A stretch of DNA of 61,229 bases, counting the filler, from Hausera hauseri (Eukaryota): assembly GCA_046269625.1 (NCBI GenBank). It is 10 parts of 10 records of this genome, joined end to end, with 100 filler letters (N's around TTAATTAATTAA, not from the genome) between each part and the next. Parts side by side here need not be neighbours in the genome. Positions count along the whole stretch, not along the records: positions 42,851 to 47,067 come from JBJURY010694438.1; 9 more parts are not named here. One strand, given 5' to 3'. The notes under the pieces are model-generated. The model had not been told where the DNA came from, did not search any database, and saw only the letters and a list, made by a program, of their open reading frames with translations. This document shows positions 22,387-61,229 of the stretch, in pieces (positions within the stretch are counted from its first letter, which is position 1; every line of letters begins with the position of its first letter). Made by a program: the position numbers and the translations under genes.

Positions 22387-22490
22387 ATAAATGTATTTCT
22401 GTTTCTTTTTTCTTTCCGTAAATAAAGTAGGCCGTATTGGTCAGTTGAATAATTCAAAAACTATAAATACGGGTAGGAAATAATATCATC

Positions 22491-22709
22491 GTGGAAACAG
22501 TTATTCAACTAAAGCATGTGCAAAATTTTGATGGATTATCAATTTCAGAATTGGTACGATGGTGGCAAGTACTTGATAATGAGTTGGTGGCGAGAGATTT
22601 TGGTGATTTTGGATGTAAAGAAGATTTAGTGTCAATAGCATTGATGACAACAGATTGCAGCTCTATAGAAAATCTAATTATTGTGTTAAATCAAAAGTAC
22701 ATTCACTGA
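22491..22709 (+). pseudogene. Small unknown ORF in the viral array
   Basis: Follows TATAAATA (22462) in a gene-dense array. No recognisable motif. Confidence 0.3.
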
Positions 22710-26460: not shown

Positions 26461-26898
26461 TTTATATGTTAGTGTGTGTAGTGGTCATAATTTAATAACA
26501 CACTGTTGATTTTGAAAACAGTGCTTCTAAAAAACAACACAGTCTCGACTTCAAATGTCCAGTATTTTGGGAATGAACTTTACACTAAAGAGCGAACAAA
26601 TCATGAGAAATAATGTGACCTTTTCATTAATGTGAGCTTTACAATATTTCTGTTACACATTTGGTGGTGGTACTCATTATTAGTATGTAGGCACACGGTC
26701 ACCACCTCCTTGTGAGTAATAGTAGTACTCAATTATGAGCTCGTGGTAATTTGTGCGTCGTCGTCGTCGTCGTTGTCGTTGTACAAAATAAAATTCACNN
26801 NNNNNNNNNNNNNNNNNNNNNNNNNNNNNNNNNNNNNNNNNNTTAATTAATTAANNNNNNNNNNNNNNNNNNNNNNNNNNNNNNNNNNNNNNNNNNNN

Positions 26899-32118: not shown

Positions 32119-35100
32119 CGGATCCAAATCCATCCTGCTCGGATGACAAATCCACGAATACGGGCAACATCTATCGTTTGCCACACTCCCAACAGACCCG
32201 AGTTTCGCTAAATTTGCCTTGTATGGAGTTTTTCTTTGATAGAACAACTCCAGCAAACCATGGCTCCAATTCCACCAACAGTGGCTAAAATCGAACAACA
32301 TCACTAATTCTTTTGTGCGAGCCAATAGCCTTTTAAATTTTCTGCCTGCCAACTTCAAGCAGCAGATTAATAATATTTCCGAGGTGTTACAATCCTCGAC
32401 ACCTTACGAGATACTCCGCGAAGCTGTACTGCATGTCACGGATCCTTCGATTGACAATATAATACAAAAGTATTTTAATGACCACGCAATGGGAAACCAA
32501 AAGCCATCCGACTTTTTGCAAACGGCCATTTTGCAGCTCAGGGCGCTAGGAGTGACCCCTGCAAATAACGCGGATTTAATTCGCCGTTATTTTTTATCGT
32601 CTCAGCCAACTTCAATCAGAGCCTTACTAACCATTGTCGACGAATCCACTGCTATCGAAAATCTGGCAATAATGTATGACAAATCCTTTGAGATTCTTCA
32701 CAATAACAGTTCTTTCCCTGTTGATGCTGCAACCACGTGCTCCAACTACAAATACAACATTTTTTACTCAACAATTGTAAATGATGCAGCAACAGTTTGG
32801 TATGCTACAACAATCGATTTTGGCCATATCCACCCAACTAAATAATCTTAACGGGCCTCGACGAAGTGAACGCAGACGTTCACGAGAGCGAGGCACTTCA
32901 ATGCACTCTTCTCGGTCCATTTCACCTGGCGGACGCATGATTTGTTTCTACCACACGCGTTTTCGAAAGGAAGCAAGGAAATGTTTCTTGGGCTGTCGAT
33001 TCTTTAGTGAGCAATGCGCTGTAAATAACACAATTTGTATATACCACAACAAATATCAATCACAGGCCAGATCATGTGTGCCTGGATGTAGATATTACAA
33101 CAAAAAATCTCCTAGCTTTTCTTCCTCTTCTTCCTTTCTTCCAAATCCTCCAAAAAACTCATAATGCCGCCAGATTTTACAGCACCTTCTGGCGCAGGCA
33201 ATATCGTGTAATCTTCTGGCCGTTTCAATACCGCCTCTGCAATCTTTCTGTTGAAGGCTGCACTTTTATGCAGTGATGCTTTTCACATCGACTTCCTTAT
33301 AGACTCAGGAGCTGCCTTTTCACTCCTTCAATTGTCTTTCACCCCTACATCCACTATAACTTCCCGTCCTCCACTTTTCACTGCCAGTGGACAACCGTTG
33401 CACGTTTCAGGAACCACGGAATTGATTTTCACATTCTTCAACTTGCCAGATAAGTTTGTTTGGAAGTTCCACATGGCTAACATTAAATCTCCAATAATAG
33501 GCTCAGATTTTCTTGCCGCACATGATCTATTGGTATATTGCAAATACAGCTGTCTTCTCAGGAGAAATTTGATTTCAAATTCAAACATGTGTCTCTCAGA
33601 CAATCTAGCAAGCAATTCATTGCACCCATCTGGAAACATGCTGACCGTTTCTTCATCTATTAAAAAACTTCCGATGAAGTCGGTACGCCTTCAATTATGA
33701 ACGACAATCCTATATCTATTCTGAAACAGAAATGCAAATTAGGTGTCGACAGCAGCGATGCCAGTTGCCTCTCTTCAGTCACTGCAGCTGTTCTTTTCAA
33801 TGATACGCCTCAATCATTCTTATTTCCAGACTCCGATCTTAGATCATATGTCACAACATCATGCTTTCCAATAGTTAAAAAAGACATCAACTTGAAGCTC
33901 TCATCCTCAACTTATCATAACATAGTAACAGAGCATCAGAAGCCGATCAAACAAAAGGTTAGACCTTTGTCTCCACGAAGACGTAAAGCTGTGGAACAGG
34001 AGTTTAATAACCTGGAAAGGTCTGGCATCATTCGGAGGTAGAATTCGCCGTGGACGTCTCCTCTTCATGTAGTGGTAAAGAAAGATGGAACCTATAGGCC
34101 ATGTGGCGACTATGGACAATTAAACAATCTAACTATTACAGATGCCAATCCACTACCACTCATTAAGGATATTCTTCATGGCCTCAGCAACACCAATACT
34201 TATTCTACTATTTATCTGCACAAGGCCTACCATCAAATCCCTGTTGCGCCTAATGACATTCCAAAAACTGCTGTCATTACACGTTTGGTCCTTATGAATA
34301 CATTTTCATGCCTTTCGGCCTACGTAGTGCATCTCAGACCTTTCAGCGCCACATTGACACCTTTCTTTCTGGACTTGATTTTGCTCACCCATACATAGAT
34401 GACATATTAGTCGCTTCCAGCTCTATAAAACAACATCATGAGCATCTTAGAATTATTTTCTACAGATTGCATCAAAGTAACCTGCAAATTAATTTTGACA
34501 AATGCAATTTCTTTCAGAAACGCGTAAACTTCCTAGGCCAAATAATTACTCCCGAAGGGCATTCGCCCCAGCCTGATCGCTTACAACAATTAAAAAATGT
34601 AGAGTTGCCAACTACAACTACCGATATGAGGAGTTTTCCTGGGACTTAGCATTTCGTACACAAATACGTCACACACTGCTCCGAACTAACGGCACCGTTC
34701 GTACACCTCTCATCTGGGAAGAAAAGATAATTAATCCATTGGACTCCCGATCTGGTAAATCAATTTGATCGCCTTCGTGAAGGTCTAAAAACTGTAGAAA
34801 TCTTGGCGTTTCCAAAACCAAACGCCGAACTAATATTAACTACCGATGCCTCTACTACAGTAACTGGTGCGGTATTACACCAAATATACAATGGCGTCGA
34901 TGAACCATTAGAGTTCTATTCTCGAAATCTCACTCAACCGGAAAGCCGATACTCCACATTCGACCGTGAACTCTTGGCTGTAGTCTTAGCGGTGAAGCAC
35001 TTCAAACACTTGTTTCTTTCACGTCGATTTACCATTCAAACCGACCACAAGCCTTTACTTCACATAATGACCTTGAAACAGCCATCATCCAGACAATAAC

Positions 35101-36770
35101 GACAGATATGATACCTGTCGACGTTTACTTTTTCCATGAAATATATTTCAGGCACCGAAAATCTAGTAGCGGATTTTCTTTCGCGGTCGGTTAACTCAAT
35201 TACAATTTAGCCACTTTTCTCCTCTGAGGTCCTGAGAAGCAATCGGCCATCATCTGACATTCTCCAAGCTTTTAAATCTGTTGAAATCATCGATGGCATT
35301 GCTTATGACACTTCTAACTCGACCAACAAAAGGATCATTCTTGCTTCATCGCTACAAAAAACAGCTTTCAACCACTTTCACTCTTTTCATCATCCAGGTT
35401 CAAAAGCCACATTTTGCCTACTGCAACGCCACGTTGTATGGCCAACTATGCGTACAGATATACATATCTGGGTCAAGGGATGTGCAGCATGCCAGCAATA
35501 CAAGGTGCACAAACTCCTAAACCACCACTTTACCACTTCCCTTGTACGTCCCGTTTTGACACTGTGCATTTGGATCCTGTCGGCTTTTTTCCGTCCGACA
35601 ACGGCTATCAATACATCTTATCCATGATGGATCGTGCTTCCCGCTGGCCTGAAGCCGTTCCACTTCGATCAACCAACACTGACTCAGTAGCAGACGCATT
35701 TATCAAGATATGGGTCAGCCGTTTTGGTTCACCACGTCGCATCATAACGTACAAGGGTCCGCAATTTGAAGATGACTCTTTAAATCTCTAGTAAAGCACT
35801 TGGAAATAGCCCACTTCCATACGACACCGCACCATCCCCAAGCAAATGGCTTTCTTGAGAGATTCCATCGCATCATGAAGATTTCTTTAAAAATTTTTGC
35901 AACCAACAATCGTAATTGGACCTCGATTCTTCCTCTTGTCCTACTTGGTTGGCACAACACGCCATCCATTACCACAGGTTGTGCCCCGGCTGAAGCTCTC
36001 TTTGGGACGCCAATTCGTGCACTATTTGAGCTTTCCAATCTGGATGAAAGTCTATCAGATGAAGTCATTCGTGCAGCACAGTCCCACTTTGTAGAGGTAA
36101 ACTCAAACGCATTCTGCCGTCTTATAAACAAAGACAAATCTTATATCCCAGAGGACATATACTCAGCCAAGTTTGTATAGCTGAAGGATCCGTTATCTTC
36201 TGGTTTTCGGCCTCAATACGTTGGATTTTACAAATTACTCAATCTTTCTTCGCACACTGTTACTGTTTTACGCAAGGACCAACCCCATAATGTACACATT
36301 TCTAATCTTAAGCCAGCCTTCTTCATTTATGATGATTAGGATAACAGCATTGTTTCAAATCCCAACTCTAACTTCGTCACCCTCAAGCCATCATCCAATT
36401 TCCTTGATGATTTTAATCCTTCGCAGCCATCACTATCGCGTGACGACCAATTCTCTGCACTTCCGTCATCATCCAGTGCTCCTTCACCATTTGCTTTTCC
36501 ATCATCGCCTGCACATCCACTAATCATTTCACCTTCATCGCAGAATTCGCTGCTATCTCCAATCTCGTCTTCGTTGCGTGATCCTTTTCCGTTTTTAACT
36601 TTTTCTCCACCTTCACCTCTTCATGAAACATCCTCCAGCACCACAAAATCCGCAGTATCTTACTTTCAAACGACTCCACAAGTACCAGTAACCTCTAACA
36701 GATCACGTCATGTGGCGTTTAGCACCTACAGAGGAGAGAGAAATTCATAGATGGAGTCCAACGTCTAACA
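32119..36770 (+). mobile_element. Ty3/Gypsy retrotransposon, CsRn1/Kabuki-like (gag-PR-RT-RH-IN), decayed
   Basis: Gag with Cx2Hx9Cx3C fingers, FLIDSGA, YRPCGDY, MPFGL, YIDD, TTDAS, TDHKPL, RWPEAVP, HPQANGFLERFHR. Confidence 0.92.
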
Positions 36771-37710: not shown

Positions 37711-40480
37711 ATGGAAAATTTTGTTCTCTATCATGAAATTTATAAGATGTAATGACTGTGTACAAAGGGAGAAAGAAATTAACGATAACGTACGTCGCCG
37801 TGTCGTGCATTGACAAAAATCAGCGAATTAAAGTCACAAATCATGTGAGAATTGTGTTTGAGTTGGACAACAAACACGTTGTTAAATTCTACGAATGGTA
37901 TGAAACGAGTAATCATTTATGGCTGGTGACGGATTTGTGTGTCGGCGGCAGTTTGCAGCAGATATTAAGTGAGGACGGCAATTGGCCAGAGAGTTCAGTA
38001 AGGCATTTTGGTGTACATTTGGTTCGTGGTCTGCATTACATTCACTCGTGTGGATTAATTTTTATCCATTGGACTCCGACTAAGATTGTATTAGACGGAG
38101 AAGGCATTTTAAAATATTTCGATTTCTCCGATTCCAGAAAAGTCGATGAAGATTATGAAGAACTAGTTCAGCGGTTTTTCAGCGGTCTTAGTATTGAATT
38201 GAAAGACGTTGAGGAGCTATTTGATTGTCGTCGACCAACTCCATACATAGCACCGGAAATACTCAACGGAAGTCAGCCGGGATTTTTGGGCTGGGTTGCA
38301 TATTTTATGAAATGTTCACAGGCTGTGCTCCGTTTAGTGGACGTGATGAGAGTGAGATGATACAAAACATCCTCAACAATCCCTTCTTAATACCAAAAAT
38401 GCAAGGATCACGAATGTGTGGTAGAGCTTCCTCAGAATTTGATGATTTACTAGAGAAATTGCTGTATAAAAATGTTGACAGTCGGATTAATATGTTTGAT
38501 TTATGTCGTCATCCATTTTGGCAAGGTGCTCTTTTGGATCTATCACAGCAAGCTAAGGCAATTTCCGCTTTCATGACTTAAGAGAAAGTCGTTCGACCGA
38601 AAACCATATCCGAAGACCAAGACGGATCTAGTAGCACCGTGGACGATGTAAGTTTCACTCTGCATCTCGGCTCACGAGCAACTGATGTCAATGAATCGTC
38701 GACAAATCGAAATAAACGCAATAAATTCCAACTCGAACCTCAGGAGAAAATTATTCAATTGTCGGAAAATGCAGAATCCATCGGCAAACAGGAAATATTC
38801 ATTCGCATTGCGAGTTGCACGGCTTTTGAACCCATTCGTTGGCAGATTGATGACTATGCTCGAATGATGAAAGACGGTCGATTGAAATTCAACGCAAAAC
38901 TAATCGCATTACGCCGTTTTCCATTGTCAAGTTTCGTGGCTTACGGAAGCCAGAGACAAACATTTGAAACAGCTCGAAACATCATTAAAAGCCATAGAGA
39001 AGGGGCCTCCAAGCCAGAAACGACTTTACATGATTAATTATTTGGGTCAAATCTCCATGGCACCCGAAGTGTCTACCTTCCTCATTGAGGCTAATTTACC
39101 AATGGAAATCTGTCGACAGATAAAATCATCGTCTAGCCAAGAACTAATAGTTCGATTATGTCAATTGCTAGCCATAATTGTTAATTTCAGTCCACAAGTA
39201 GAACCGAATTTGTATGACGAAATGCTCCTTGTGTTGGCCGAAATACTGAGAGATCAATTTTGATGTACTCGTGTAAAACTGGCATGTCTCACCGTGTTAA
39301 GGGCAGTGTTACTGAAACATGCCCAGTGCACTGAAACGTCTGATGTTTCTCAATCTCAAATACCGACATTAGGACTCTGTGCTACTCTTCTTCATCGATG
39401 TCTCTATCGTTCAGAAGACGTATCTAGGAATCTCGCAGCAGCTCGAACCATAGAAATCGTTGCACAATTCCCGAAATGTCCACTGACAAATCTCATCACA
39501 TCATCTGAAACCATGCAGCAGTTGTACACCGTTTATAAACATACTAGTTTAGACCTACTCAAAACGAGCTCCGTAGTTGCATTATCTCGTCTCACTCATG
39601 TTGACGCGACGTTATTTTGTAATCTCATCGAAAAAACTGGAACCCAAGGGCTTTTAAAAAATCTTCATGTTGCTCTGTTGTCAGTTCAAAAAGCCATTTT
39701 AGAAATGTTCACCATTGCTGTGCTTGCCCAACAAAATTCACCGGTTATTCTTAAACTTATCCAGGATGCAAATTTCATCTTTATCATAATGAGGTTACTT
39801 GAAACACCAGCTGTTGTTGTTTGAGCGAAAGTGTTTCTACTTCTTTTGCTTATTTGCAAATGCGAAATATCTCAACTTCGTCCAGTAACTGATAATCGTC
39901 TGGTGTTGTATTTGAAACGGGAGCTCAAACGGACGAACGTCGGCGGCACCGCGAACAGCACAGGATTGGTGGAAACTTGTTTGAAACTCTGGAGAGCATT
40001 TCTGGCAACACATGCTGTTCCGACAATCTTATCCGAAACATGTATTTCACTCCAAGCAATTCAGGGCCGTAAACATCCATCGTCTGCTCAAATGAAGGCA
40101 TTGAGAGCCATTATGCATTTATTAGAAAGCATATCTAGCTTGAGTCTCTCATCATCTCTTCGGGGTTACCTCCTTTCTCAGTCCTTTTTTCAATCCCTTG
40201 GTGATCTAATAGCCCATGCTATTCGATTGGATGCTGATCAAATCGCTCTCGGAACTGACATTTCTCCACAATTCATGTGCGCCGTTTTGTCACTTGTTGA
40301 GACAGCATGCCATACTGATGAAACACCCAGTCTCTTATCATTCATTTTCGTCCCATTGGCCACTCTCAGACATCAGCACCAATCCTGATGTTCGTATCAC
40401 TGGTCGTAAACTCTGCAATGATATTATACAATCATTGGACAGCGATACGGACAATCTCGATACATCTGCCTTGGTTCGAG
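37711..40480 (+). pseudogene. ULK4: Intronless ULK4 pseudokinase copy (kinase plus HEAT/ARM repeats) with stops and frameshifts
   Basis: MENFVLYHEI / VYKGRKK..KVTNHVR..HVVKFYEWYETSNHLWLV..GGSL..PESSVRHFG, followed by helical repeats including GRKHPS. Several in-frame stops and no introns seen. Confidence 0.9.
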
Positions 40481-40481
40481 C

Positions 40482-40870
40482 CACAGATCACGTTCCTGAA
40501 TATTCGGAAATTCTTGTACCTAATGTCGATAATGTAAGGACTGAAACTCTTATTGATACCATTGCCAAACAAGGGAAATCTGTCTCACTGATTGGTGAGC
40601 AAGGAACAGTTAAGAGAGTTATGGTATCGAAATTTATGGCAAAATATAATCCTGAATCTCATGTTTTTAAATCTTTTAATTTTTCATCTGCTACTACTCC
40701 AGCATTAATTCAGCGCACAATTGAAAGTTTTATTGAGAAGCCAGTAGGCACAACATTTGGGCCGCCGGCTGGTAAAAAATTGTCAATCTTTATTGATGAT
40801 ATAAATATGCCGTTGATAAATGAGTGGGGTGATCAAATTGCAAATGAATTCGTCCGTCAAACATTGGAAG
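40482..40870 (+). pseudogene. DNAH5: Axonemal outer-arm dynein heavy chain (DNAH5/DNAH8-like) AAA3 fragment fused to ULK4
   Basis: [83 protein letters not shown]. Confidence 0.88.
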
Positions 40871-41859
40871 TCAATCATTTGACCACTCGGGAAAGTAGCA
40901 ATGAACTGTCATCACATTATCGCAACAGTGGTGAACATACCATATCAATGTCCTACACCAAATCTGATAAAACTTTTACTAGTTACAAACTGTTGTGTCA
41001 TTTTGTTGTCGAACGTTTAACACAGACTTTCGATTATGTAATGGCTTCTTTTATTCGATTGATCGTTAGATCTCGATTTCACAAACGAAAACAAATTATC
41101 CAAGGATTATTTCTTCAATAAACAGTTCCTAGCATAATGACGAAAGAGATCAACGTCCTGATGGTGTCCACGGATATTGCAATTGTCATTGAAATTCAGG
41201 ATGGCATAACCAGTAGTGATATGTCTAATATCACTGTGAACACAACTGATAACGTCTTACTGATAATCCCTATATCGAGTATGCTAGATGAATTACAAAA
41301 GAAACAGGCCGAACAGAACAAAGAACTGGAAAAAACATTTGAGATGTGGCCAAATTCTACATCCAGGACTCAGATATTCAAACACAGGTGGGTGAAATTC
41401 TTTTTATTGATTTATGCCCACCGGTGCGGCCGCATCCTTTGCATTTGCAAATCCTTCATATCTCCCATCCTTTTTCACTTTAAAAGGTTCTTTAGCTCAT
41501 TATCTTTGCACATTCCTTTACTCCATTCATCACTTAACACCGCTATCCCGACTGCACGCCCATATCTCTTGTTAAGACTGAATCAAACCGCACAAGCATT
41601 TTACCATTCTCCTGGAATTGCTTCGCTGCAACTCTCCTTCCTTATTTTTAATAACAATAAACACATAACGACCATTAAGGTTCCACTGAATACCACGGCG
41701 TAGCTACTATACACCTCTCTATCCTCCTCACTCGACACTGCCAATTTCTATTTCACACATCGAGGCATCACTGTACATCCCGTCGACTCACTTTTGTCTT
41801 TTGCATGCCATGAACGTCCACTTATCCATCTTATGCTCAACTTGCACCTCCGGGGTGTA

Positions 41860-42750
41860 TCAGATACAAATCCATCCTGCTCGGATGATAAATCCACGAA
41901 TACGGGCAACATCTATCGTTTGCCACATTCCCAACAGTCACCAGGTTCGTTAAATTTACCTTGTGTTGAATTCTTCCTTGACAAAAACAACTCCGGCAAG
42001 CCATCCTCCAATTGCACCAACAGTGGCTAAAATCAAACTACATCATAGATTCTTTTGTGCTAGCCAATAGCCTTTTAATTCTTCTTCCTGCCAACGTCAA
42101 GCAGCAAATTAATAATATTTCCAAGCTGCTACAGTCCTCGACGCCTTACGAGACACTCTGCAAAGCTGTACTGCATGTCACGGATCCATCGATTGACAAC
42201 ATAATACACAAGTATTTTAATGACCACGCAATGGGAAACCAAAAGCCATCCGACTTTCTGCAAACGGCCATTCTGCAGCTCAGCGCGCTAGGAATGACCT
42301 CTACGAATAAAGCGGATTTAATTTGCCGTTATTTGATATCGTCTCTGCCCACTTCAATCACAGCCTTGCTGACCGTTGTTGACTAATCCACTGCAATCGA
42401 AAAACTGGCAATAATGGCTAACAGTTTTTTTCCTGTTACTGCTGCAAGCACATGTTATCTAACTACAGATACAACACTCTTTACTCAATAATTGCAAATG
42501 ATGCAGCAACAGTTTGATATGCAGCAACAATCGATCTTGGTCATTACTAGCCAACTAAGTAATCTTAATGGGCCTCGACAAAGTGAAACCAGACGTTCAC
42601 GGGAGCGAAGCATTTCGATGAACTCTTCTCGGTCAATTTCACCTGGCGGATGCATGACTTGTTTCTACCACATGCGTTTTCGAAAGGAAGCAAGGAAATG
42701 TTTCTTGGGTTGTCGATTCTTTAGTGAGCGATACGCTGTAAATAACCCTA
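41860..42750 (+). mobile_element. gag: Second gag copy of the contig 6 Gypsy family, truncated by contig end
   Basis: High nucleotide similarity to 32119-33030 (for example TDPSIDNII.KYFNDHAMGNQKPSDFLQTAILQL). Confidence 0.9.
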
Positions 42751-42850: not shown

Positions 42851-43324
42851 GGTCAAGCAGTTTCCGGTTTTCTAGCTATATATTTTATTATTAGCGCCAT
42901 ACGGACAGTATTTACGGCACTAGGTAAAGCCTATGGAATACATGCAGCAGTAGGATGCTCATGGAAAATCCTAATAGCGGCAATACCTGCAGTAGCAAGT
43001 TGTTTTCTAGCAAATCACGATGCACGATGTGAAAGGAAGATATTACAGAGGAAAGACATAAAAGAATCCCCGTATAGTATACCTGACGATAATGATGCCG
43101 AATATAGTCAAATGAAAGCAAAGAAACGAGTACCTAGTATCAAACAACTAGTACTAAAGACACGGAAACCGAAGTATAGACAGAAGTTAATAACGGACTT
43201 ACCCCGTCTAGACCCAGTGGACGAATATCATGGGCAAATGTATAATGAACAACCATTAATAAATCCTTCAGCTCCTCGATACGTAGTACATGCAGGATTA
43301 TATCCTACATATGAAGTTCAATAG
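42851..43324 (+). pseudogene. C-terminus (TM region and tail) of a chuvirus-like glycoprotein, in frame with downstream protease
   Basis: Open frame from contig start, not in the ORF track: GQAVSGFLAIYFIISAIRTVFTALGKAYGIHAAVGCSWKILIAAIPAVASCFL.., then a tail containing PSAP. Homologous to 58014-58170. Confidence 0.65.
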
Positions 43325-46300
43325 ATAAAACAAAGTTTTGATGAAAATCTGACCTCCTATAAACGTGAATCTACGTACAGTGTTGACGATAAAAATGAAA
43401 GACAACCACCTCTAAGACCAGAAATAGAAATAGAGGTGAACGGGTATCCTATGACGACTTTACTAGACACAGGATATACAACAACGATAATGGGAAGAAG
43501 CCAATTACCAAAGGAGTTAAAAAGGAAGTTACAAAGACCAACTACCACATTAGTAAACGTAGGAGCATTTGGTACAGAAGAGGAACGCAAGATGATCTTA
43601 GATGCGGAAATTAAGATCGGTGAACAAATGTTGAAACATACCATAAGAATAGCAGATAACTGAACTAACGAAATATTAATTGGATGAAATATATTAAAAC
43701 AGTTGGAGAACGCTTACATAGATATGAAAACGTGTCAACTTAAGATGTTCAGTGAAGATCGTAACTAAGGAATGGTCTCACTAAAAAGAGACATCACAAT
43801 CCCACCACGATCTGAGATAGTAGTTCCCGGAAAAATAGAAAGTCAAAACGTTACCAGAGATTATATATTTTGAACCTTCCCCACAGGTTATGGAAAAATA
43901 TGAAGTTCTAATCGCCTCTCACGTAGACAAGGTTAGAGATGGAAAAGTCCACTTACGAATTTGTAATACAACAAAAAAGAAAAACGATTACGGAAGAATA
44001 CTAGAATGGGAAAAATAACGATCACTGAAGAAATAATGAAAGAAGAAATCTGCTCAGTAATATCAGATGTAGACAAAATAGAAAAGATAATGGCGGAAAA
44101 GCTGAAAAAGAAACTAGATGAAGACAAAAGAAGAAATAAAACCAGGAATATCGACTAGAACAAGAGATTACAAAAATGCGAAATTCTAAGTAAGGAAGAG
44201 AAGGAAATGCTAATTGAATTATTGGAAAAGAATAACAGTCGATTTGCACAAACTGACTATGATCTAGGCACAATGAAAGTAATACAGCACACCATCAAGT
44301 TGAAGGGTGGACAAGACAAGCCAATTAAGAAAAGACCGTATCGATTAGCATACGATAAGAAACAGGAAGCGCGTAAAATAATAAAAGAGATTAGGGAAAA
44401 TAAGATAATTCGACGAAGTTGCTCCCTTTGGACAGCGCCAATAGTGATGGTCAAAAAGAAAGATGGAACTATGAGATTTTGTATAGACTATAGAGTCTTA
44501 AACGAAATAACAGAGACGGATACATATTTTCTATTAAGAATTGATGAGATACTAGATAAACTATACGGATCGACCATATTCACAACCATCGATCTACAAA
44601 AGGGTTATTGGCAAGTGAAGGTCAAAGAAGAAGATAAACCAAAGACAGCATTCGCAATTGGAGAAGGGTTGTGGGAGTTCAACATGATGCCGTTTGGGTT
44701 AAAGAATGGACCGCCAACATTCCGAAGAGAAACAGAACTTCTATAGATGATGTAATAATAGCGTCACCAAACTTTCGACAACATCTAAAGGATCTACAAA
44801 ATTTCTTTGACAGATGTGAAATAATGGGTCTAAAGATAAATTTCAAGAAATGTTTATTTGCTCAAGCAGAGGTAGATTTTCTCAGACATAAAGTGGATAG
44901 ACACAGTGTAAAACCTCAGGACAAGCTCTTAGGAAAAATAAGAGATTTTCCTAAGCCAGGTACAGTTAGAGAATTACGTCAGTTTCTAGGTTTAGCAAAC
45001 TATTACCGAAGATTCATAAAGGATTTTAGCAAAATTGCGAAACATTTGTATGAATTATTACGTGAAGACCTCTAAAAAGGCATCTGGACAAATGAATGTC
45101 AAAAAGCTTTTGAATATTTAAAAGATAGACTATTAACGGCTCCTATGTTAATCTATCCTGATATAACCCAACCATTTATTTTGGCAACAGACGCAAGTGA
45201 TTGTGGAGTAGGAGCAGTATTATCACAGAAGGGCGAAGATGGAAAGGAACACCCTGTAGCTTATGCTTCACGAAAACGTAATAAGCATCAGAAGAAATAT
45301 TCTGTAATAGAAAAAGAGTTATTAGCAGTAATCTTTGCCTTGGAAGTATTTTTACCCCATATTAGTGAAAATAAACCGCTCTTGATTTATACGGATCATA
45401 GACCGCTCCAAAGGCTAAAGCAGCATGAGAATCCAAATAGTACACTACTACGATGGGCTCTAAAGTTGCAACCGTACACATTAAATTTCCAGTATAAGCC
45501 TGGATCGCGAAATGCCAACGCCGACTACCTATCGAGAATACCTTATAAGTCAGAAACAAAGGCAGTAGTCGCAGCCGTATGGAGTATGGATGGATCAGTC
45601 GAGAAAATTAAGGCAAATCAATATGAAAATGTAGAAATAAAGGCCATTAGAAAATACATAAAAGATAAAACCATACCAGTTGACAGAGAGCTAATACGCC
45701 ACTTGGCTCGATTCAGCGAGGCTACGAGGAAAAAGAAGGATTTCTATATTTTATTAATCAAAACGGACCTGCATTAGTAATTTCTAAGAAAAATAGAGCA
45801 GTTTTACTGACCCAGTATCATGATAGATTACTTAGTGGACACCAATCGGCCAATAAAAAACTAAACAAACTAAAACGAAAATATTTTTGTCCCACGATAA
45901 CGAAGGATGTACAGGAATGGTGCGAGAGCTGCAAGCTTTGTGCTACACGGAAAACACAGGATCAAAATTCAAAGCACCATTAAAGGTATGGGACAACCCT
46001 ACAGCGCCATTCGAATTTACCGCCATGGATATAACAGGGCCATTGCCGTTGATACGAAATGGAAACAAATACATTTTAGTCTTCATTGAGTATTTCACTA
46101 GATGGGTTGTTGCTCTACCAATGCCTGATTTAAAAGCAGACACAATCGGTGAGAAATTTGTAAAAAATATAGTATATAATTATGGAGCTCCAATAATCCT
46201 CTTGACCAATCAAGCGTCAAATTTAACTGGAACTGTAATGCAGTCCATATATGACATCATGAAGATATTAAAATTACGATCCACGCCAGGACACCCAGAG

Positions 46301-46900
46301 AATAATGGAATAGTTCAGAGATATATTGGAGATTTAAAAGGGAAATTACAAACGGTAGTAAATACTAGGTAAGACGATTGGGACGAATATATCAATACAT
46401 GTGTTTTCGTAAATCGGACATCGGTTGATGAAGCTACTAAAGAGACACCCTTCTACTTAATGTATTTACGGGGTGCAAGATTACCAATCGATCTAGATTT
46501 TAATGTAAAACCAATTTCACATTTAATGGAAATAGAAGACTATAAGCAATTCATGCAGGAACGCCTTCAGTTAGCACATAAAATGATTGGCGATAACCAG
46601 AAGGATTATAAATTAAAATAAAAAAGTACTACGACCAAAATACCAAGCAGCCTAAAATTAAGATAGGTGACCAAGTAATGCTGTATTCTCCGGCAATTAA
46701 AAAGGGTAAAACGTCTAAGTTAGACCATATAAAGGACCATGTAAAGTAGAAAAAGTAGACTTACCGAATATTTGTTTGAGAAAGAATAATACTTCAGTGA
46801 AAGTCCACGTAAATAGATGTAAACCCTCTGCCAAGGAGAGCGAACTAAGAAAAGGTGAAAAAGAGTCGGTATGTAGCATCAGTGAAAAGGTAATCGAAAT
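42851..46900 (+). mobile_element. Ty3/Gypsy element (G-like tail, PR, RT, RH, IN), decayed
   Basis: LLDTGY, RFCIDYR, DLQKGYWQ, MPFGL, IDD, ATDAS, TDHRPL, AMDITGPLP, HPENNG. Confidence 0.92.
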
Positions 46901-47167
46901 AAGTTCAACAAGTAAACTTCAGATAAAGGAGGTCCTACTACTAATTATTATCTTGTGATAGGACCGGTGACGAATTCGGAAATTGAACGAGCAAAAATAA
47001 GACATGCCATAGCTATACAAGAAGATTTGTTAATGAAAGCTTTACGGTACAAAATAACATATTCAGANNNNNNNNNNNNNNNNNNNNNNNNNNNNNNNNN
47101 NNNNNNNNNNNTTAATTAATTAANNNNNNNNNNNNNNNNNNNNNNNNNNNNNNNNNNNNNNNNNNNN

Positions 47168-50100
47168 TTCTTCACGTGATATTACATCATTGGTCACGTG
47201 GTGTTCTGTGATTGGTCACGTGACGTCATATGGTTTGTCACGTGCAATCTGTGATTGGTCACGTCATTTGTCATATGTTTGGTAAGGAGATTCTTCAAGT
47301 GATATCACATCATTGGTCACGTGGTGTATCTGATTGGTAACATAATGTAATTTTGCTGGTCACGTTATATCTGTGATTGGTCACGGGATTGGTCACTAGA
47401 TTTGTCACGTCATGTCACAGGATTGGTCACGTGATTGGTCATGTCATTTGTCATATGCTTGGTCACGTCATTCTTCAAGTGATATTACATGATTTGTCCC
47501 GTGATATCTCTAATTCGTCACATAATATAATTTCTCCGGTCACGTTATATCTGTGTTTGGTCACGTGATTCTTCAAGTGATAATGCATCATTGGTCACGT
47601 GATGTCTGAGATTGGTCACATGATATCACTTCGCTGGTCACGTTATAATTGTGATTGTTTACGGCATTGGTCACTAGATTTGTCACGTGATGTCACAGGA
47701 TTGGTCACGTGATTAATCACGTCATTTCTCATATGTTTAGTCACGTGATTCTTCAAGTGATATCACATCATTGGTCACGTGGTGTTCTGTGATTGGTCAC
47801 GTGACCTCATATGGTTTGCTACGTGATAATTGTGATTGGTCACGAAATTCGTCATTAGATGTGTCACGTGATGTCACAGGATTGGTCACGTGATTGTTCA
47901 CGTCATTTGTCATTTGTTTGGACACGTGATTCTTTACGTTATATTACATCATTGGTCACGTGATGTGTCTGATTCGTCACATATTATAATTTCGCCGGTC
48001 ACGTTATATTCGTGATTGGTCACGGGATTGGTCACTAGATATGTCACGTGATGTAACAGGATTGGTCATGTGATTGGTCACGTCATTTGTCATATGTTTG
48101 GTCACGTGATTCTTCACGTGATATTACATCATTGGTCTCGTGGTGTTTGTCATTGGTCACGCGACGTCATATGGTTTGCCACGTGATATCTCTGATTGGT
48201 CACGGGATTGGTCCCTGATTTGTCACGTGATGTCACAGGATTGGTCACGTTATTGGCCACGTCATTTGTAACATATTTGGTCACGTGATTCTTTACGTGA
48301 TATTGCATCATTCGTCACGTGTTGTATCTGATTGGTCACATAATATAATTTTGCCGGTCACGTTATGTCTGTGATTGGTCAGCGGATTGGTCACTAGATT
48401 TTTCACGTGATGTCACAGGAAAGGTCACGTTATTGGTCACGTCATTTTTCATATATTTGGTCACGTGATTCTTCACGTGATATTACATCATTGGTCTCGT
48501 GGTGTCTGTCATTGGTCGCGTGACGTCATATGGTTTGCCACGTGATATCTGTGATTGGTCACGGGATTGGTCACTAGATTTGTCACGTGATGTCACAGGA
48601 TTGGTCACGTGGTTGGTCACGTCAATTGTGGCATATTTGGTCACGTGATTCTTTACGTGATATTACATCATCTATTGTGACTTGATGTCTGTGATTGGTC
48701 ACATTATATCATTTCTCTGGTCACGTGAACTCTGATATTGGTCACGGGATTGGTCACTAGATTTGTCACGTGATGTCACAGTATTGGTCACGTGATTGGT
48801 CACGTCATTTGACTCATATTTGTTCACGTGATTTCTCACGTGATATCACATCATTGGTCACGTGGTGTTCTGTGATTGGTCACGTGACGTCATATAGTTT
48901 GCCACGTGATATCTGTGATTGGTCACGGGATTGGTCACTAAATTTGTCACGTGATGTCACAGGATTGGTCACGTGATTGGTCTCTAGATTTGTCATATGT
49001 TTGTTCACGTGATTCTTCACGTGATATCACATAATTGGTCACGTGATATCTGTGATTGATCATGGGATTTGTCACTAGATTTGTCACGTGATGTCACAGG
49101 ATTGGTCACGTGATTGGTCACGTCATTTGTCATATGTTTGACCACGGGATTATTCACGTGATATCACATCATTGGTCACGTGATGTCTGTGATTTGTCAT
49201 ATTATATAATTTCCTCGCTCAAGCGATATCTGTGATTGGTCAAGGGATTGGTCACTAGATTTGTCACGTGATGTCACGGGATTGGTCACGTGATTGGTCA
49301 CGTGATATAACATCATTGGTCACGTCATGTCTGTGATTGGTCACATAATATAATTTCGTCGGTCACGATATATCTGTGATTGGTCACGGGATTGGTTACC
49401 AGATTTGTCACGTGATGTCACAGGATTGGTCACGTGATTGGTCACGTCATTTGTCATATGTTCTTTCTCGTGATTCCTCACGTGATATCACATCTTTTGT
49501 CACGTGATGTTCTGTGATTGGTCACGTGAGGTCGTGTGGTTTGTCACGTGAATTCTGTGATGGGTAACCGGATTGGTCACTAGATTTGGCACCTGATATC
49601 ACAGGATTGGTCACGTGATTGGTCACGTCATTTGTCATATGTTCGTTCACGTGATTCTTCACGTGATATCTCATCATTGCGCACGTGGTGTTCTGTGATT
49701 GGTCACGTGACGTCATATGGTTTGTCACGTGAAATCTGTGATTGGTCACGGTATTGGTCACTAGATTTGTCACGTGATGTCACAGGATTGGTCCCGTGAT
49801 TGGTCACGTCATTTGTCACATATTTGGTCACGTGATTCTTCATGTGATATTACATCATTGGTCACTTGATGTCTGTGATTGGTCACATTATGTCATTTCT
49901 CTGGTCACGTGATATCTGTGATTGATCACGGGATTGGTCACTAGATTTGTCACGAGATGTCACAGGATTGGTCCCGTTATTGGTCACGTCATTTGTCACA
50001 TATTTGTTCACGTGATTCTTCACGTGATATTACATCATTGGTCACTTTATATCTGTGATTGGTCACATTATGTCATTTCTCTGGTCACGTGAACTTTGAT

Positions 50101-51572
50101 ATTGGTCACGGGATTGGTCACTAGATTTGTCACGTGATGTCACAGGATTGGTCACGTGATTGTTCACGTCATTTGTCACATATTAGGTCACGTGATTCTT
50201 CACGTGATATTACATCATTGGTCACTTGATGTCTGTGATTGGTTACATTATGTCATTTCTCTGGTCACGTGAACTCTGTTATTGGTCACGGGATTGGTCA
50301 CTAGATTTGTCACGTAAAATCAGAAGTTTGGTCACGTGATTCGTCACGTCATTTGTCATATGTTTGGTCACGTGATTCTTCACGTGATATTACATCATTG
50401 GTCACTTGATGTCTGTGATTGGTCACATTATGTCATTTCCCTTGTCACGTTAACTCTGTTATTGATCACGGGATTGGTCACTAGATTTGTCACGTGATGT
50501 CACAGAATTGGTCACGTGATGTCACAGAATTGGTCACGTCATTTGTAACATATTTGGTTACTTGATTCTTCACGTGATATTACGTCATTGGTCACTTGAT
50601 GTCTGTGATTGGTCACATTATGTCATTTCTCTGGTCACGTGATATCTGTGATTGTTCAGTGGATTGGTCACTAGATTTGTCACGTGATGTCACAGGATTG
50701 GTCCCGTGATTGGTCACGTCATTTGTCACATATTTGTTCACGTGATACTTCACGTGATATCACATAATTGGTCACGTAATATCTGTGATTGGTCATGGGA
50801 TTAATCACTAAATTTTTCACGTAATTTCACAGCATTGTTCACGTGATTGGTCACGTCATTTTTCACATATTTGCTTACGTGATTCGTCACGTGATATCAC
50901 ATCATTTGTCACGTGAATTTCTGTGATTGGTCACGTAATGTCATGTGGTTTGTCACGTGATATCTGTGATTGATCACGTGATTGGTCACTAAATTTTTCA
51001 CGTGATGTCACAGGATTGGTCACGTGATTGATCACGTCATTTGACATATGTTTTTCCACGCGATTTTTCAGGTGATATTACATCATTGGCCGCGTGATTT
51101 CTGTGATTGGTCACATAATATAATTTAGCCGTTCAAGCTATATCTGTGATTAGACATGGGATTGGTCGCTAGATTTTTCAAGTGATGTCACGTGATTGGT
51201 TCCGTGTATGGTCACGTCATTTCTGACATATTTGGTCACGTGATACGTCACGTGATATCACATCATTGGTCACGTGGTGTTCTGTGATTGGTCACGTGAC
51301 GTCATATGGTTTGTCACGTGAAATCTGTGATTGGTCACGGGATTGGTCACGTTATTGGTCATGTCATTTGTCATATGTTTGATCACGTGATTCTTCACGT
51401 GATATCACATCATTGGTCCCGTGATGTCTGTGATTGGTCACGTGACGTCATATGGTTTGTCACGTGAAATCTGCGATTGGTCACGTGATTGTTCACTAGA
51501 TTTTTCAAGTGATGTCACGTGATTGGTTCCGTGTATGGTCACGTCATTTCTGACATATTTGGTCACGTGATA
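47168..51572. repeat. Satellite DNA, ~180-bp monomer built from ~12-bp GATTGGTCACGT subrepeats
   Basis: The landmark gtcactagat and its variants recur at about 47851, 48031, 48211, 48390, 48570, 48753 and 48934. Confidence 0.95.
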
Positions 51573-55447: not shown

Positions 55448-56323
55448 TCACTCATGCGGTGCAGACATCTGAAAATCATTCAGATCGTATCCTTTCTGCA
55501 GAAATAACTGTCTAAACACCTCTGGGTCTTTCTTCTCCAGGGTGGACGTGATAAGTCTCACAGCTAATGATCTCATGCAAGGAATACAACAACATCCACA
55601 AGTTACCAGAATTGCAATAAAAATAGACAAAGACACTATCAAAGATATAATCACTTGTCTCCAAGGGCCAAAAACTCTCAAGAGCCAATCTTCAAAAGGG
55701 TTGTCAATACCCGAATGACTTTGCATCTCATTAGAGAGTGTCCTAAGGCCTTCCAAGGCTCTAGTGACCTTACCATCAGGAGCGGTGTTGTTTGGGATGA
55801 AACTACAACAGAGATCTCCAAACATACTACAAACACCACCTCTCTCTGCCAACAACATATCAAGCGCCATTCTGTTCTGCACTGCCATCAAAGATGTAGG
55901 AGCTAACTGTTCAGCTAATCCTTCTACCGCATCTCTCGTCAAATTGGACAGACGCATAACATTATAATGTATATAATTTATTCTGTCCACATTTTTGTTT
56001 GGAGTAACTGGAAAAAGTGCTGAGATAATAGGTATATTTTCAAAACCAGCTGCCACTTGGTCTGCCAGTTTGTGTTCATTAGGTACGCCTCGAGGTATTC
56101 CTATGGCATCAATGTAAGTGGGCGAGCCTACAGTGGGATCAAAGTTATGTGTAGACCTCTTTGACCTAGACATAGTGGTGGTGAGATTCAAATGCTCCAA
56201 TCTAGGGCCTATCAGTGTAAGCGGGGCAGCTAATCGCACCATGGCACAAAGTCCAACGGTGTTGTCCAAGATGCGAGTTAGCAGCCTTTTGTCACCACAA
56301 AAGTAATATAGTCCTGCTCTGAC
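55448..56323 (-). CDS. env: Endogenous retrovirus envelope (end of SU plus TM), teleost gamma/epsilon type
   Basis: Furin site RSKR, immunosuppressive domain VQNRMALDMLLAERGGVC, CX6CC motif, TM helix and Cys-rich tail. Confidence 0.93.
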   Translation of the reverse strand, partial: VRAGLYYFCGDKRLLTRILDNTVGLCAMVRLAAPLTLIGPRLEHLNLTTTMSRSKRSTHNFDPTVGSPTYIDAIGIPRGVPNEHKLADQVAAGFENIPIISALFPVTPNKNVDRINYIHYNVMRLSNLTRDAVEGLAEQLAPTSLMAVQNRMALDMLLAERGGVCSMFGDLCCSFIPNNTAPDGKVTRALEGLRTLSNEMQSHSGIDNPFEDWLLRVFGPWRQVIISLIVSLSIFIAILVTCGCCCIPCMRSLAVRLITSTLEKKDPEVFRQLFLQKGYDLNDFQMSAPHE

Positions 56324-57806
56324 NNNNNNNNNNNNNNNNNNNNNNNNNNNNNNNNNNNNNNNNNNNNTTAATTAATTAANNNNNNNNNNNNNNNNNNNNN
56401 NNNNNNNNNNNNNNNNNNNNNNNGAGAGATAATACGAACTTACTTAAAGTTGTTGTTGTCGACCATAATGCTACCACAAATAAATTAGTGAATAATAACT
56501 TAGAAATGAAACATGATTTTAATTTGTCGCTCGTTTAAATTTTTGAGTCTTATTAGCTGTATATATATCTAATTTTCATTTCATTGATATTGTAATTTAT
56601 TCTAGAAGACTGATTGGTTTTATGTATAATTTTGAATTAAATAAGTTTGTATTATAGAAGGAAATTTAATGCTTTGTCGATTAATTGTTGAACATATATC
56701 TTGAATTGATAAAGGTGAAGAGTAAGGTACATTATATATCAGTACATGCATCATCAACCGATACAGAATTGAAAAATGAAATCCCTCATATCATACTTAA
56801 ATGTATATGTATGCGTGAAGGGTAAAGTCAATTTAATAGTAATATACAAAAATACCTCTGATTGAAGGCATGTAGTAAAAGATGGCCTCTAATGGAATAA
56901 TGCTTATCTGAAAAACACGAGCAATATTACCAACATGAGGTCAGTGAAGCATATACCTTTTCAAATTTTTAACTTTGACCTTAATGGGTATTTATTACAT
57001 GATAATACGAATTAATAGATTTTATGAATATATATGAATTTTATGAATGTAGAACTATAATTGAACTCGAGTAAGTCATTCAGTTAAAGCAGAAAGGTAA
57101 AGTATACCATTTTCAAATGTAAGATTGAAAAGTAAAACTATAGATACTGTAATTCCTATTGTCGAAGTAAATGTTGGTTTCGAGAGTGTGTCTGGTAGTT
57201 CATCAATTAAATCTCATTCGTCGTAAATCAATTGTATTGAAGATAAAAGTAAGATGCGTTATCTATCAATATATATCTCTTTACCCATATAGAATTAATA
57301 AGTGAAATTTTAAATGACGCCGCAATTATCATACTTTTGTATGAATATATATTTATAGTTGAATATACGTATAATAACCTTTAAGGATACGTAATGAGAG
57401 ATGACCTTTGATAGAATAGCATTTATTTGGAAGATATGAATAGTGTTATCAATGTCATTTCTTGGTCCAAAAAATATGTATTCCTTTTAAGCATTACCTT
57501 AGGATTAATAACAATGACTTCAAGTTATATGCTCATTTTGGGTATCAACGGGATTAATCCCTAGTTACTTTAGTCGCTGTTGAACCAGTTATAACTTTCA
57601 AGAATATTGCCATATAGACATGATAGTTTGAGAACATGCTCGAACAGAAGATAGATAACTATATGATCCGCCGTATACTCACAAAACCTTTAGATAGGAG
57701 AACGGTACGGTCTAAGATGAAAGAGGTTAACAGTAAAACAAAAGCGGACATAAAATTTATATCAATTTATATGTTAAGTACTACTTAAGGTTAATAATAA
57801 TAACCC

Positions 57807-58415
57807 CTGTACTATCAACACGGGGAGATCGAAGCCTTCAGAGAATTTCTCATTTTTCCACGACAACGAACACATGAATTAAACCGAGCCATGGCCTCTG
57901 TGGTAGACGATACTCGATACGAAGCCAAATGGGAATCTTTACTGGGTGTTAACCACTATCAGAGGGTAACTTCCGAGATATTATACATGATTTGAGGAAG
58001 ATTTCTAATTTTTGGGCAAGCCGCATCCGTATTTTTGGCTATCTATTTTTTGATCCAATTAGTCAATGCAGTGATTCAAGCTGTTATAAACGGATACGAA
58101 ATATTCACGCTAACAGGATTTTTTTGCAAGATTTTAACTGCAATTATCACACCCTTCGGGAAAATGCTAAAGGCTTACGAAGGAAATTTTTGGAAAAATC
58201 ATGTAGAACGACATGTCCGATATTATAACCGTAAACGACGAGGAAGGCCCTCGATTTTTAACAAACGCAAAAACAAAAGGATAATAATGAGGAAAGACGA
58301 CCCAGATGATAAGGAGCCTAAGGGAGGAGAAATGAATTCTAGAATGAGGATGCAGAAAGTGGACTCAGCGAAAAACACGCCATTACCAATCATGCCTACC
58401 ACAGCACCAATATAG
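57807..58415 (+). pseudogene. C-terminal part of a chuvirus-like glycoprotein (membrane-proximal region, TM, tail)
   Basis: One frame: LY..GEIEAFREFLIFPRQRTHELNRAM..SLLG..YMI*GRFLIFGQAASVFLAIYFLIQLVNAVIQAVINGYEIFTLTGFFCKILTAII. The TGA at 57993 sits at a probable Trp codon. Confidence 0.7.
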
Positions 58416-61229
58416 AAAGATTGCGACCACAAATCAATAGTATCATGTAAGTCAGAAATCTATCAGAAACCTATCCAATACGAGGATCCGTACGAAAAAA
58501 CAAAACAATACGGNNNNNNNNNNCTAATTGAAAACAATTACGGAATATTATATTCAAAAAGAATACCGCGGCACATAGAACCAAAATCAACCATTTTGGG
58601 AAACCAAAAGTTGTGTTCGACTTCGAGTGCACTACGACATGAACCGCTCTTCGACAGCCGCCTTACTGAAATAGCAAATAATGACTTGTACCGGAATGGA
58701 AAACTAAGACAATTAAGGCAGGATATCATTTCATCACCAGAAATTACGATAAATGGACATACAATCTCTACGATAAAATGGTCAAAGATAGTGTCAAATT
58801 GCTACGAAACAGTAGCGGAAGGAAGACCCTTAGCTAAAATACACATCGAAGACTGGGAAGTGTATGCATTAATCGACACCGGATCAGAAAAATCATTTAT
58901 AAAATACGAGTCTATACCAACCACATTGCGAGACCAGTTATGTCCACCCGCATCATCAGACCCGGGCAGTGTAGGAGCATTTGGACAAGTATCGAAGCCA
59001 AAATTTAAATGGATTCCTACGGTTTACATGATGGGTCAAGCGTTGCAACACGAATTTGCCATAATGGATCAGTTAACAGACGATGTATTACTAGGTTGCG
59101 ATATAGTGAAACAGATACCAGGTATGGCGATAGACGTACACAATGGAAAATTAGTTGAGCTCGAACCAGTAAAAGGGAAAAAAGTAATAAAAGAAAGGAA
59201 ATCAGACGATGTATGGATTTCGGTAGATGAAGACATTCCGCCCAGAACCGAATTGATAATTTTCGCACAGATCAGACAGGACGAGGATTTGCCAGTATAC
59301 TTTGAGCCTCAAGAGAATATCGATCCGAACCTCATGCTTAGCAATATATTATGTAGAGTAGTGACGGGACGAATAACTATTAGATTAGTAAACAATGCTT
59401 CAATTCCCGTGCTATTACATGCTAACACTACTCTAGATCACACGTGCAGAGCATCGGCGTTAACAATCGAGGAAAAACCTTATAAGTGTGCTGAATTTCC
59501 ACCTCACGTAGAAACCAAATTTTTGCCAGAAGCGTATTGCAAATTTTGTGAATTATTGTGTAAATACCGTTCAGTCATCGCACAAAATGAAGAAGACATT
59601 GGCAGGGCAAAAATATTAAGACTAACGATTCCGTTAAAAAAGAAACCGGGTTCAAATGACGAGATCGACCTAGAAGAACAGAAAATGCCTAAATGGTATC
59701 CGCCTCCTCACTCATTGAGACCAGAGATAAGTAAAGAAGTAGAGCGAATGTTAAAGGCCGACATAATTCGACCAAGCTACCTATCATGGTACTCGGCTAT
59801 ACTTATGGTTAAGAAGAAAGGAACTACAAAATATAGGTTTTGTATAGATTATCGAGCATTGAACACACTGATGATGAAAGATTCATTTCCATTACCATCA
59901 GTAAAAGAGGCATTAGATAGACTATCAGGAGCAAAATGGTTTATCACTATCGACTTACAATTGGGATACTGGCAAGTGGAAATTGAAGAAGAAGATGGAT
60001 ACAAAACAGCGTTCAAAACACACGATGGCGTGTACGAGTTTAATGTTATGCCTTTCGACATCACCACAGGACAGCTATTTTCACTAGAATGATGAATAAG
60101 ATGCTCATGGGACTTGATCACGCTTTTGCGTACTTAGATGACGTGATGATAGCATCGAAAACGGAAGAGGAACATTTAAAGGAAATTGAGGATACACTCA
60201 TGCGATTAGAACAGGCAGGGTTGAAATTAAATCCAAAGAAATGTAAATGGGCAAAAAATGCCGTATCATACCTTGGACACATAGTTGGTGAAGGAGGATC
60301 AAAACCGGATAAATCCCTGCTGGATAAAATATCTGATTGTATGGAACCACAGAATCAAAAAGAACTAAGGCACTTGTTAGGCCTATGTGGGTATTATGCC
60401 ACTTACGTTTCAGACAACTCAAAAATAAATGCGCCGCTATATCGCTTACTCAAAAAAGGGACTAAGTGGAGATGGACGGAAGTGGAACAGAAAGCATTCG
60501 ATGAACTAAAGAACATTCTGACAAGCGAACCAGTTTTAAGATATCCAGATTTTAACTTACAATTCATCATTAAAACGGATGTAAGTAAAGAAGGGATAGG
60601 ATACGAATTGGCTCAAAAATGAGGGGACGAAGAATTAGAACATCCAATAGCCTATGGAGGACGTTCGGTAAAGAAAGCGGAAAAGAACTATTCGGCTACC
60701 GAACTAGAAACGTTAGCAGTCAAAGAAGCATTACGGCACTTTAACGTCTACGCATATGGGCAAAAGATTATCATAGTAACCGATCGCAAAGCAGTTACGA
60801 CATTGAAAGGACGAACTGATAATCCAACTTGTAGGCTAAATCGTTGGATAGAGGAATTCTCACGAAATAACATTGAATTTCAATACAAACCGGGTAATAA
60901 ACATGTCGACGCGGATTCAATGTCAAGATTAAAAACAAAAACAAGTGCAATCACTACGCTAAAGAGACCAAAACTCGAACAACTCACTGAATAACAAAGA
61001 ACCTTGATTTCGGATAAGACAACTAAAATTACAGTTGAGCAAGCTAAAGATATGGTTATTCAGAAAATTATCGGATTCGTAAGAAATGACGAAATACCAA
61101 AGGGACGGCAACTGAAAAAGCGCCTACAGAAACACGGACGTAAATATTACGTATCGAATCAGGATAATATTTTGTATTACGAGCGAAAAGAAAGAAGATT
61201 AATATTTATTCCAAAAGTATTACGTATCG
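57807..61229 (+). mobile_element. Ty3/Gypsy element (G-like region, PR, RT, RH; truncated before integrase core)
   Basis: ALIDTGS, YRFCIDYR, DLQLGYWQ, YLDD, KTD.S, YSATELE, HVDAD.MSR. Confidence 0.92.

Follow-up and report, generated by a model that had tools for sequence, protein, structure and literature searches.

Decayed copies of a Ty3/gypsy retroelement family with a chuvirus/gB-type envelope gene directly upstream of pol

We analysed a window of 61,229 nucleotides from the Hausera hauseri assembly GCA_046269625.1, made up of ten contigs with 100-base linkers between them, and found two members of a retroelement family that carries an envelope gene (env) before pol. The element under study lies at 42851-47067 (record JBJURY010694438.1) and a comparison element lies on 56424-61229, hereafter contig 10. 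We are confident that 42851-47067 is a decayed Ty3/gypsy element of LTR (long terminal repeat) type with an env of the chuvirus/herpesvirus glycoprotein B (gB) type directly upstream of pol. The fuller statement, in which env and pol also share a continuous frame and are likely made as one polyprotein, seems to us about evenly poised between right and wrong. The env-before-pol Gypsy family itself is real and inherited, and it is decayed in both copies.

Envelope tail and pol in two elements

The first-pass annotation had recognised a divergent Gypsy on this contig, and domain matches bear this out: pol is of the Ty3/gypsy type, in the order protease (PR), then reverse transcriptase (RT), RNase H and integrase (IN). 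An artificial contig linker ends just before position 42851, and the contig opens inside the env tail. From there the order is env C-terminus, a linker coding in one frame, PR, a pseudo-dUTPase, RT, RNase H and IN, as follows (HSV, herpes simplex virus).

42851..43096 (+): C-terminal end of a chuvirus/HSV-gB-type envelope glycoprotein, with two hydrophobic stretches and the start of the tail (PF24664 match, hydropathy)
43004..43411 (+): linker or predicted cytoplasmic tail, coding in the env-PR frame only (stops by frame 1/13/18)
43265..43276 (+): PSAP, which fits the P(T/S)AP motif (composition alone would give 0.005; the control residues, 111,122 in all, contain 3; a post hoc observation)
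43322..43324 (+): TAG in the frame of env tail and PR, lying between the two, from decay or a programmed stop
43415..43708 (+): retroviral-type aspartyl protease, broken by stops at 43661 and 43685 (RVP E 8.6e-9, stops read as X)
43769..43982 (+): degenerate dUTPase-fold spacer with frameshifts near 43872 and 43980 (fits the first 25 positions of the spacer profile)
44159..45072 (+): reverse transcriptase with a frameshift near 44730-44743 (RVT_1 E 1.5e-16)
45076..45480 (+): RNase H (RT_RNaseH E 1.4e-35)
45953..46722 (+): integrase core and C-terminal part, broken (rve E 7e-8)

The DTG of the LLDTG motif is at 43466-43474, and beyond the TAG there are in-frame stops at 43661, 43685 and 43766. 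Past the integrase, up to the contig end at 47067, no further gene was recognised; three pieces, from two of the three frames of 46621-47062, matched no relevant family.

Both env tails match the C-terminal end of PF24664, the chuvirus-type fusion glycoprotein of Monjiviricetes. The contig-10 tail covers positions 479-600 at E 8.5e-13 and 47.6 bits, above the cut-off, and the 42851 tail covers positions 548-626 of 653 at E 1.9e-6 and 26.6 bits, 0.4 bit short of the cut-off of 27. Equating PF24664 with the HSV/gB type of PMC13524379 rests on a passage of that paper that likens its env to Chuviridae envelope genes. The peptides quoted in the first-pass annotation are present in the sequence (from 42851 and from 58014), and the tails align with 22 of 57 columns identical. 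Its claim that the two are related also withstood a significance check: the local score of 70 compares with a shuffle mean of 22.6 and a maximum of 56, and none of 5000 composition-preserving shuffles reached it. Since the shuffles never attain this score and pairwise BLASTP gives E 8e-11, the similarity of the tails exceeds mere hydrophobicity. When the contig-10 peptide was run by tblastn over the whole window, 42851-43141 was the only non-self match below E 0.01. The tail lies about 0.4 kb from PR in the 42851 element and a nominal 0.65 kb or so, across a gap, in contig 10, in both cases within 2 kb. The tail is strongly basic in contig 10 (16 lysines and arginines to 3 aspartates and glutamates) but only slightly so in the 42851 copy (10 to 8).

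The second element has the same order of parts as far as RNase H.

57813..58172 (+): C-terminal ~120 residues of the same envelope family, with a stop at 57993 (PF24664 E 8.5e-13, 47.6 bits)
58173..58814 (+): basic tail plus linker; PTTAP lies at 58395, a TAG in frame at 58413 and a gap of 10 N's at 58514-58523
58818..59117 (+): protease (RVP E 8.8e-6)
59190..59459 (+): dUTPase-fold spacer without catalytic motifs (profile, model, Foldseek)
59550..60931 (+): RT and RNase H with a frameshift near 60060 and a stop at 60620 (domain matches)

Because the 10-N gap precedes the protease, the frame from env to PR is not established in contig 10. Upstream of its env fragment, a scan of 56424-58412 in three frames showed no env or gag. 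The 1.4 kb 5' of the fragment has a host-like composition, without the A-rich bias of the element, and matches no family, so the copy seems to be truncated on its 5' side. Neither copy has intact open reading frames (ORFs), both being interrupted by stops and frameshifts; they are decayed relics and not intact members.

Database searches added no relative. At E 1e-3, none was found for the env tail among longer proteins (345 candidates), for contig-10 PR plus spacer among longer proteins (482 candidates) or for tail, linker and PR among shorter proteins (292 candidates). A search of representative proteins returned three, all WD40-repeat-like by eye and unrelated; viral contigs gave no match for tail or RT, and a PDB sequence search with the tail gave one chance match only. 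Atlas matches to the spacer and to the env fragment were clusters without names.

Kinship, the dUTPase-fold spacer and abundance

The two elements are 27% identical over PR and spacer, 43-44% over RT and 37% over RNase H, and at the DNA level they match almost nowhere. Their linkers show no alignment beyond chance (141 of 2000 shuffles did as well). Low pol identity, the near absence of a DNA match and unalignable linkers together indicate two old, separate families.

Metagenomes supplied 80 Gypsy loci as a background. In a 29-row tree of RT and RNase H, built from both elements and 27 loci (28 were chosen and one was dropped as too short), the two group with loci L001 and L002 at 96/93. Within this group a sister relationship of the two is neither supported nor rejected (approximately unbiased test, p 0.185). 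A quick RT tree of 83 rows likewise puts both in one 12-row group at 87. The contigs of L001 and L002 end upstream of PR.

By tblastn the env tails matched none of the 80 loci at E 0.05, and PF24664 was found in none of 85 ORF pieces from control loci (76 of the 99 upstream pieces, from 48 loci, and 9 of the 16 downstream pieces). Gag precedes PR in most of what was scanned, and in two cases an F-type env comes after pol. The proposal that the arrangement is an inherited trait and not a chance juxtaposition is upheld by homologous env tails at the same place in diverged elements, by a single pol clade (96/93) and by a family that is abundant in two runs, where contigs bridge the stretch from linker to protease.

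L001 and L002, the nearest pol relatives, have peculiarities of their own. In L001:3-8482 and L002:1-8075, an ORF of 2,200-2,370 residues has pol running into ankyrin repeats (E 1e-11 to 1e-12). L002 also gives weak Fn3-like matches, and in L001 a second protease-like stretch and a C-terminal hydrophobic helix can be seen by eye. An ORF of 405 residues comes next, which looks exonuclease-like by eye and has no Pfam match. This is an unusual retroelement.

The first-pass annotation had also pointed to a shared dUTPase-like spacer (IPPR.E) between PR and RT. The spacer is there, as IPPRSE and IPPRTE in the two elements, and its label is right by profile, structure model and Foldseek alike. A profile built from 26 PR-RT spacers ranks dUTPases or dCTP deaminases in the first 26 places among its 42 PDB matches (best E 8e-5). 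For the contig-10 spacer the structure model is confident, with a predicted local distance difference test score (pLDDT) of 89, and all 36 listed Foldseek rows are dUTPases, with a best E of 3.4e-3 and none at 1e-3 or better. A single-sequence fold of PR plus spacer was of low confidence (pLDDT 38), and the contig-10 spacer has no Pfam dUTPase match. An active trimeric dUTPase is expected to have a set of five catalytic motifs. By eye, the spacer lacks the motifs that can be made out in L048, a control locus with an intact dUTPase, and from its sequence it is likely not an active enzyme.

As evidence of shared lineage, for which the annotation had used it, the spacer fails. It occurs in 25 of the 42 control Gypsy loci with enough open frame upstream of RT, none of them with this env, a count that comes from an iterated profile whose E-values are inflated by construction. 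We therefore ruled it out as a lineage marker. The loci are as follows.

Spacer-bearing loci: L005, L007, L013, L016, L018, L021, L023-L027, L029, L031, L034, L044-L046
Spacer-bearing loci, continued: L049, L050, L052, L059, L064, L076, L001, L002

A spacer of about 90 residues without catalytic motifs may be widely overlooked, as any Pfam dUTPase match was obtained for only 3 of the 26 aligned members. The texts of PMC5408684 and PMC2864245 place a dUTPase between PR and RT in the bdelloid elements Juno, Vesta and TelKA and in the fungal PosPlaTy3-5, respectively. The domain position is the same here, whereas the present spacer lacks both a Pfam match and the motifs of L048.

The family is abundant in two public runs, X1 and X2, which are labelled as different organisms. 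The 42851 stretch was matched by 15,416 and 1,839 contigs, respectively, and 30 of 30 bins were covered in both. Most matching contigs are less than 95% alike, and the differences are mainly transitions. The source of the window may itself be related to X1, and no copy number can be read from summed depth. In X2, three contigs tile 43020-43516, one of which (43186-43516) bridges the TAG and the start of the protease; no single listed contig reaches from tail to protease.

How pol would be made

The earlier reading was that 42851, 43112 and 43436 share a frame that runs to LLDTG with no assembly gap. The shared frame and the absence of N's hold, but the frame is not open, since the TAG at 43322-43324 had been missed. 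Apart from this codon, the linker at 43004-43411 codes in the env/PR frame only: that frame holds 1 stop, and the two remaining frames hold 13 and 18. The contig-10 linker has 1/8/8 stops before its gap and 0/8/5 after it. No in-frame ATG occurs at 43325-43451, the first one past the TAG being within the protease. Contig 10, too, has none from the gap until well inside the protease. With no usable ATG and the other linker frames closed, pol has neither its own start nor an overlapping frame to be entered from, and an env-pol fusion is likely.

We propose that env and pol would be translated as one polyprotein in a continuous frame, with gag placed upstream of env (GAG-ENV-POL). By its inferred topology, the glycoprotein would be a membrane-anchored fusogen whose basic tail faces the cytoplasm. 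Attached to this tail, pol would be carried along to the budding site and be freed by its own protease. On this proposal, the TAG at 43322 would be one of the many decay lesions of the 42851 copy. From 6 other stops in 1014 mapped pol codons of that copy, decay is expected to leave 0.92 stops in its linker and, in the contig-10 linker, 0.71, so that one stop per linker is ordinary. At one of the pol stops, 43661, the contigs of the family depart from this copy over 1519 of 1529 depth in X1 and over 40.6 of 40.6 in X2, which makes that stop copy-specific. A table of indels (12 rows) has none between 42851 and 43847; the rest fall at the frameshifts of the 42851 copy, of which the one near 44735 is missing from the table. 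Since no common indel lies between 42851 and 43847, the shared env-PR frame seems to be that of the family.

Several observations weigh against a single polyprotein. Both linker stops are TAG, and exactly one stop in each linker, both of them TAG, has a probability of 0.0067 under decay; a programmed stop with no further stop has 0.196. If codon type is ignored the two are nearly equal, at about 0.13 for decay and 0.20 for a programmed stop. PSAP stands 19 codons and PTTAP 6 codons before the respective stops, as if the tails ended there; P(T/S)AP is a late-domain (budding) motif. Among the copies seen, none has an open frame from env to PR. The absence of the TAG from 40 of the 1259 rows of differences is uninformative, since only one of the six known decay stops is among them. 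The two hydrophobic stretches could mean two membrane passes. Neither copy shows gag, ectodomain, LTR or tRNA primer-binding site; both contigs end inside the elements. Finally, depth drops about fourfold from the env-tail bin to the one after it in both runs (35,542 and 8,151; 741 and 176), which could be explained by faster divergence of the linker or by tails unlinked to this pol.

Of the alternatives to a decayed polyprotein frame, the one that fares best, and which we consider possible but the lesser prospect, takes the TAG as the true end of env. Occasional ribosomal readthrough would give the env-pol fusion and keep envelope in excess of enzymes, and PSAP or PTTAP would recruit the budding machinery. 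It would account for why two elements so deeply diverged each have a single in-frame stop here, TAG in both cases (the TAG share of expected decay stops is 0.20 and 0.26), for a frame open on either side of the stop, for a pol without ATG and for proline motifs just upstream of the stops. Set against this, decay alone expects one stop per linker (probability of at least one in both, 0.31), and the coincidence of two TAGs and the motifs were noticed post hoc; the PTTAP of contig 10 is not a true P(T/S)AP. Neither the positions nor the contexts of the stops match: the TAGs lie 157 and 133 codons past a shared glycine, A follows both, and no stable RNA structure lies downstream of either (z 0.78 and -0.66). 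The missing signals do not exclude readthrough, because the text of PMC2194720 reports that pol expression in the yeast element Tca2 gets past a stop in frame, even though flanking sequence by itself failed to direct readthrough. Taken further, env would be ended by a programmed UAG, pol would be made by readthrough from the cytoplasmic tail and the late-domain motif would drive budding, so that the enzyme ratio would be set by env in place of gag, and pol would be brought into the particle by env as well. We put this forward as a speculation that is probably wrong.

Alternatively, env could be a separate gene ending at the TAG, with a spliced gag-pol RNA that removes env and joins just upstream of the protease. 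Such splicing would likewise explain a stop in both copies and a pol without ATG, and the nematode Gypsy element Cer1 uses splicing, though not to this end, according to the text of PMC3315495. It would leave to chance both the frame shared by env and PR (1 in 3) and the 29 open codons past the stop (0.11), and we think it unlikely.

Still less probable, in our judgement, is that the linker is a short gag (ENV-GAG-POL) or that the env tail belongs to another element, adjoining by chance or nesting. ENV-GAG-POL elements with a short gag exist in two mites (text of PMC13524379), the contig-10 gap could hide sequence, and the excess depth over the tail would suit an unlinked tail. However, the 136-codon linker of the 42851 copy is gapless and has no gag, capsid or zinc-knuckle match, and the linker codes in the env/PR frame only. 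The unlinked tail must also contend with the recurrence of this order in another element of the same pol clade, and with the family contigs that tile 43020-43516 in the second run. Two further candidates were rejected, a frameshift into pol from an overlapping frame (the other frames are closed throughout the linker, and that of the 42851 copy has no slippery heptamer) and a start of pol at its own ATG (the first in-frame one is inside the protease).

The rest of the window and known systems

The window holds several unrelated sequences. At 55451-56323 (-) a retroviral env of vertebrate type is represented by its transmembrane part (TLV_coat E 1.5e-8), in which a furin-like site and a stretch like an immunosuppressive domain can be seen by eye. 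It looks like fish endogenous retroviruses (ERVs). In an otherwise invertebrate-like window, it is possibly host or prey DNA in the assembly, and it has no relation to the gB-type env. Another Gypsy element, separate and distant, lies at 32119-36750 (+) and has gag-like sequence directly before PR-RT-RNase H-IN, with no env seen upstream of pol. Fragments of an apparently intronless, broken protein kinase (Pkinase E 1.6e-20) and dynein motor (AAA_7 E 3e-39) at 37746-42750 (+) directly precede a partial Gypsy gag that is 85% identical to 32121-33029, possibly a case of host RNA captured by a retroelement. Broken MORC-like fragments with no obvious introns lie at 10423-12296 (-) (Morc6_S5 E 7e-9, 4e-7). 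The stretch 20145-26798 has a TBP-like domain (E 3e-14), a dUTPase (E 9e-8) and, by eye, pieces of a protein-primed DNA polymerase, and is Polinton/Maverick-like or derived from a DNA virus. A complex satellite fills 47168-51572, with a 12-bp core and 180/359-bp higher-order repeats. Three decayed elements that by eye resemble BEL/Pao lie at 821-7463, 16237-20008 and 26899-30884, with 64-76% similarity over parts of their length; a tandem duplication (79%) is made up of 3258-3890 and 3902-4551.

The env-before-pol gene order has already been published. Errantiviruses of Nematoda, Bryozoa and Platyhelminthes have an HSV/gB-type env only, in GAG-ENV-POL order and in several separate clades, and two mites have ENV-GAG-POL, according to the text of Chary and Hayashi (eLife 2026, PMC13524379), which credits the nematode case to Sacco et al. 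2022 (J Gen Virol 103:1739). By its title and that account, the nematode ERVs of the latter study have env before pol after capture of an RNA-virus glycoprotein. Our family works like the GAG-ENV-POL errantiviruses, sharing their testable features except intactness. Both have a Gypsy PR-RT-RNase H-IN pol with a chuvirus-like, gB-type glycoprotein immediately upstream, and both are multi-copy; the published survey took in elements with intact ORFs, whereas the copies here are broken and their env is known from its C-terminal part only, the five-domain gB-like ectodomain expected of the class, with cysteine bridges and fusion loops, falling outside the window. The nematode elements reportedly have a continuous gag-env-pro-pol ORF; both copies here have a single coding frame with one junction TAG each. 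The BEL/Pao element Anakin also shows a chuvirus-like glycoprotein captured by an LTR retroelement, but with a mosquito BEL/Pao pol and not Gypsy (Dezordi et al. 2020, text of PMC7642597).

The main text of PMC13524379 says nothing on env-pol fusion, frameshift, readthrough, splicing, polyprotein or dUTPase, though its figures and sequence files may bear on this; that env tail and protease lie in one coding frame is thus a point its text leaves unaddressed. Literature listings gave no account, for elements of this kind, of readthrough of an env stop or of late domains. If the UAG that both copies have is programmed, pol would be made in a manner that we have not found in print for them. The present elements add an abundant, old, two-lineage family to a class, described recently, of Gypsy elements that carry their envelope gene before pol, which is of modest specialist interest. 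Should the host lie outside the nematodes, bryozoans and flatworms, the known range of the class would widen.

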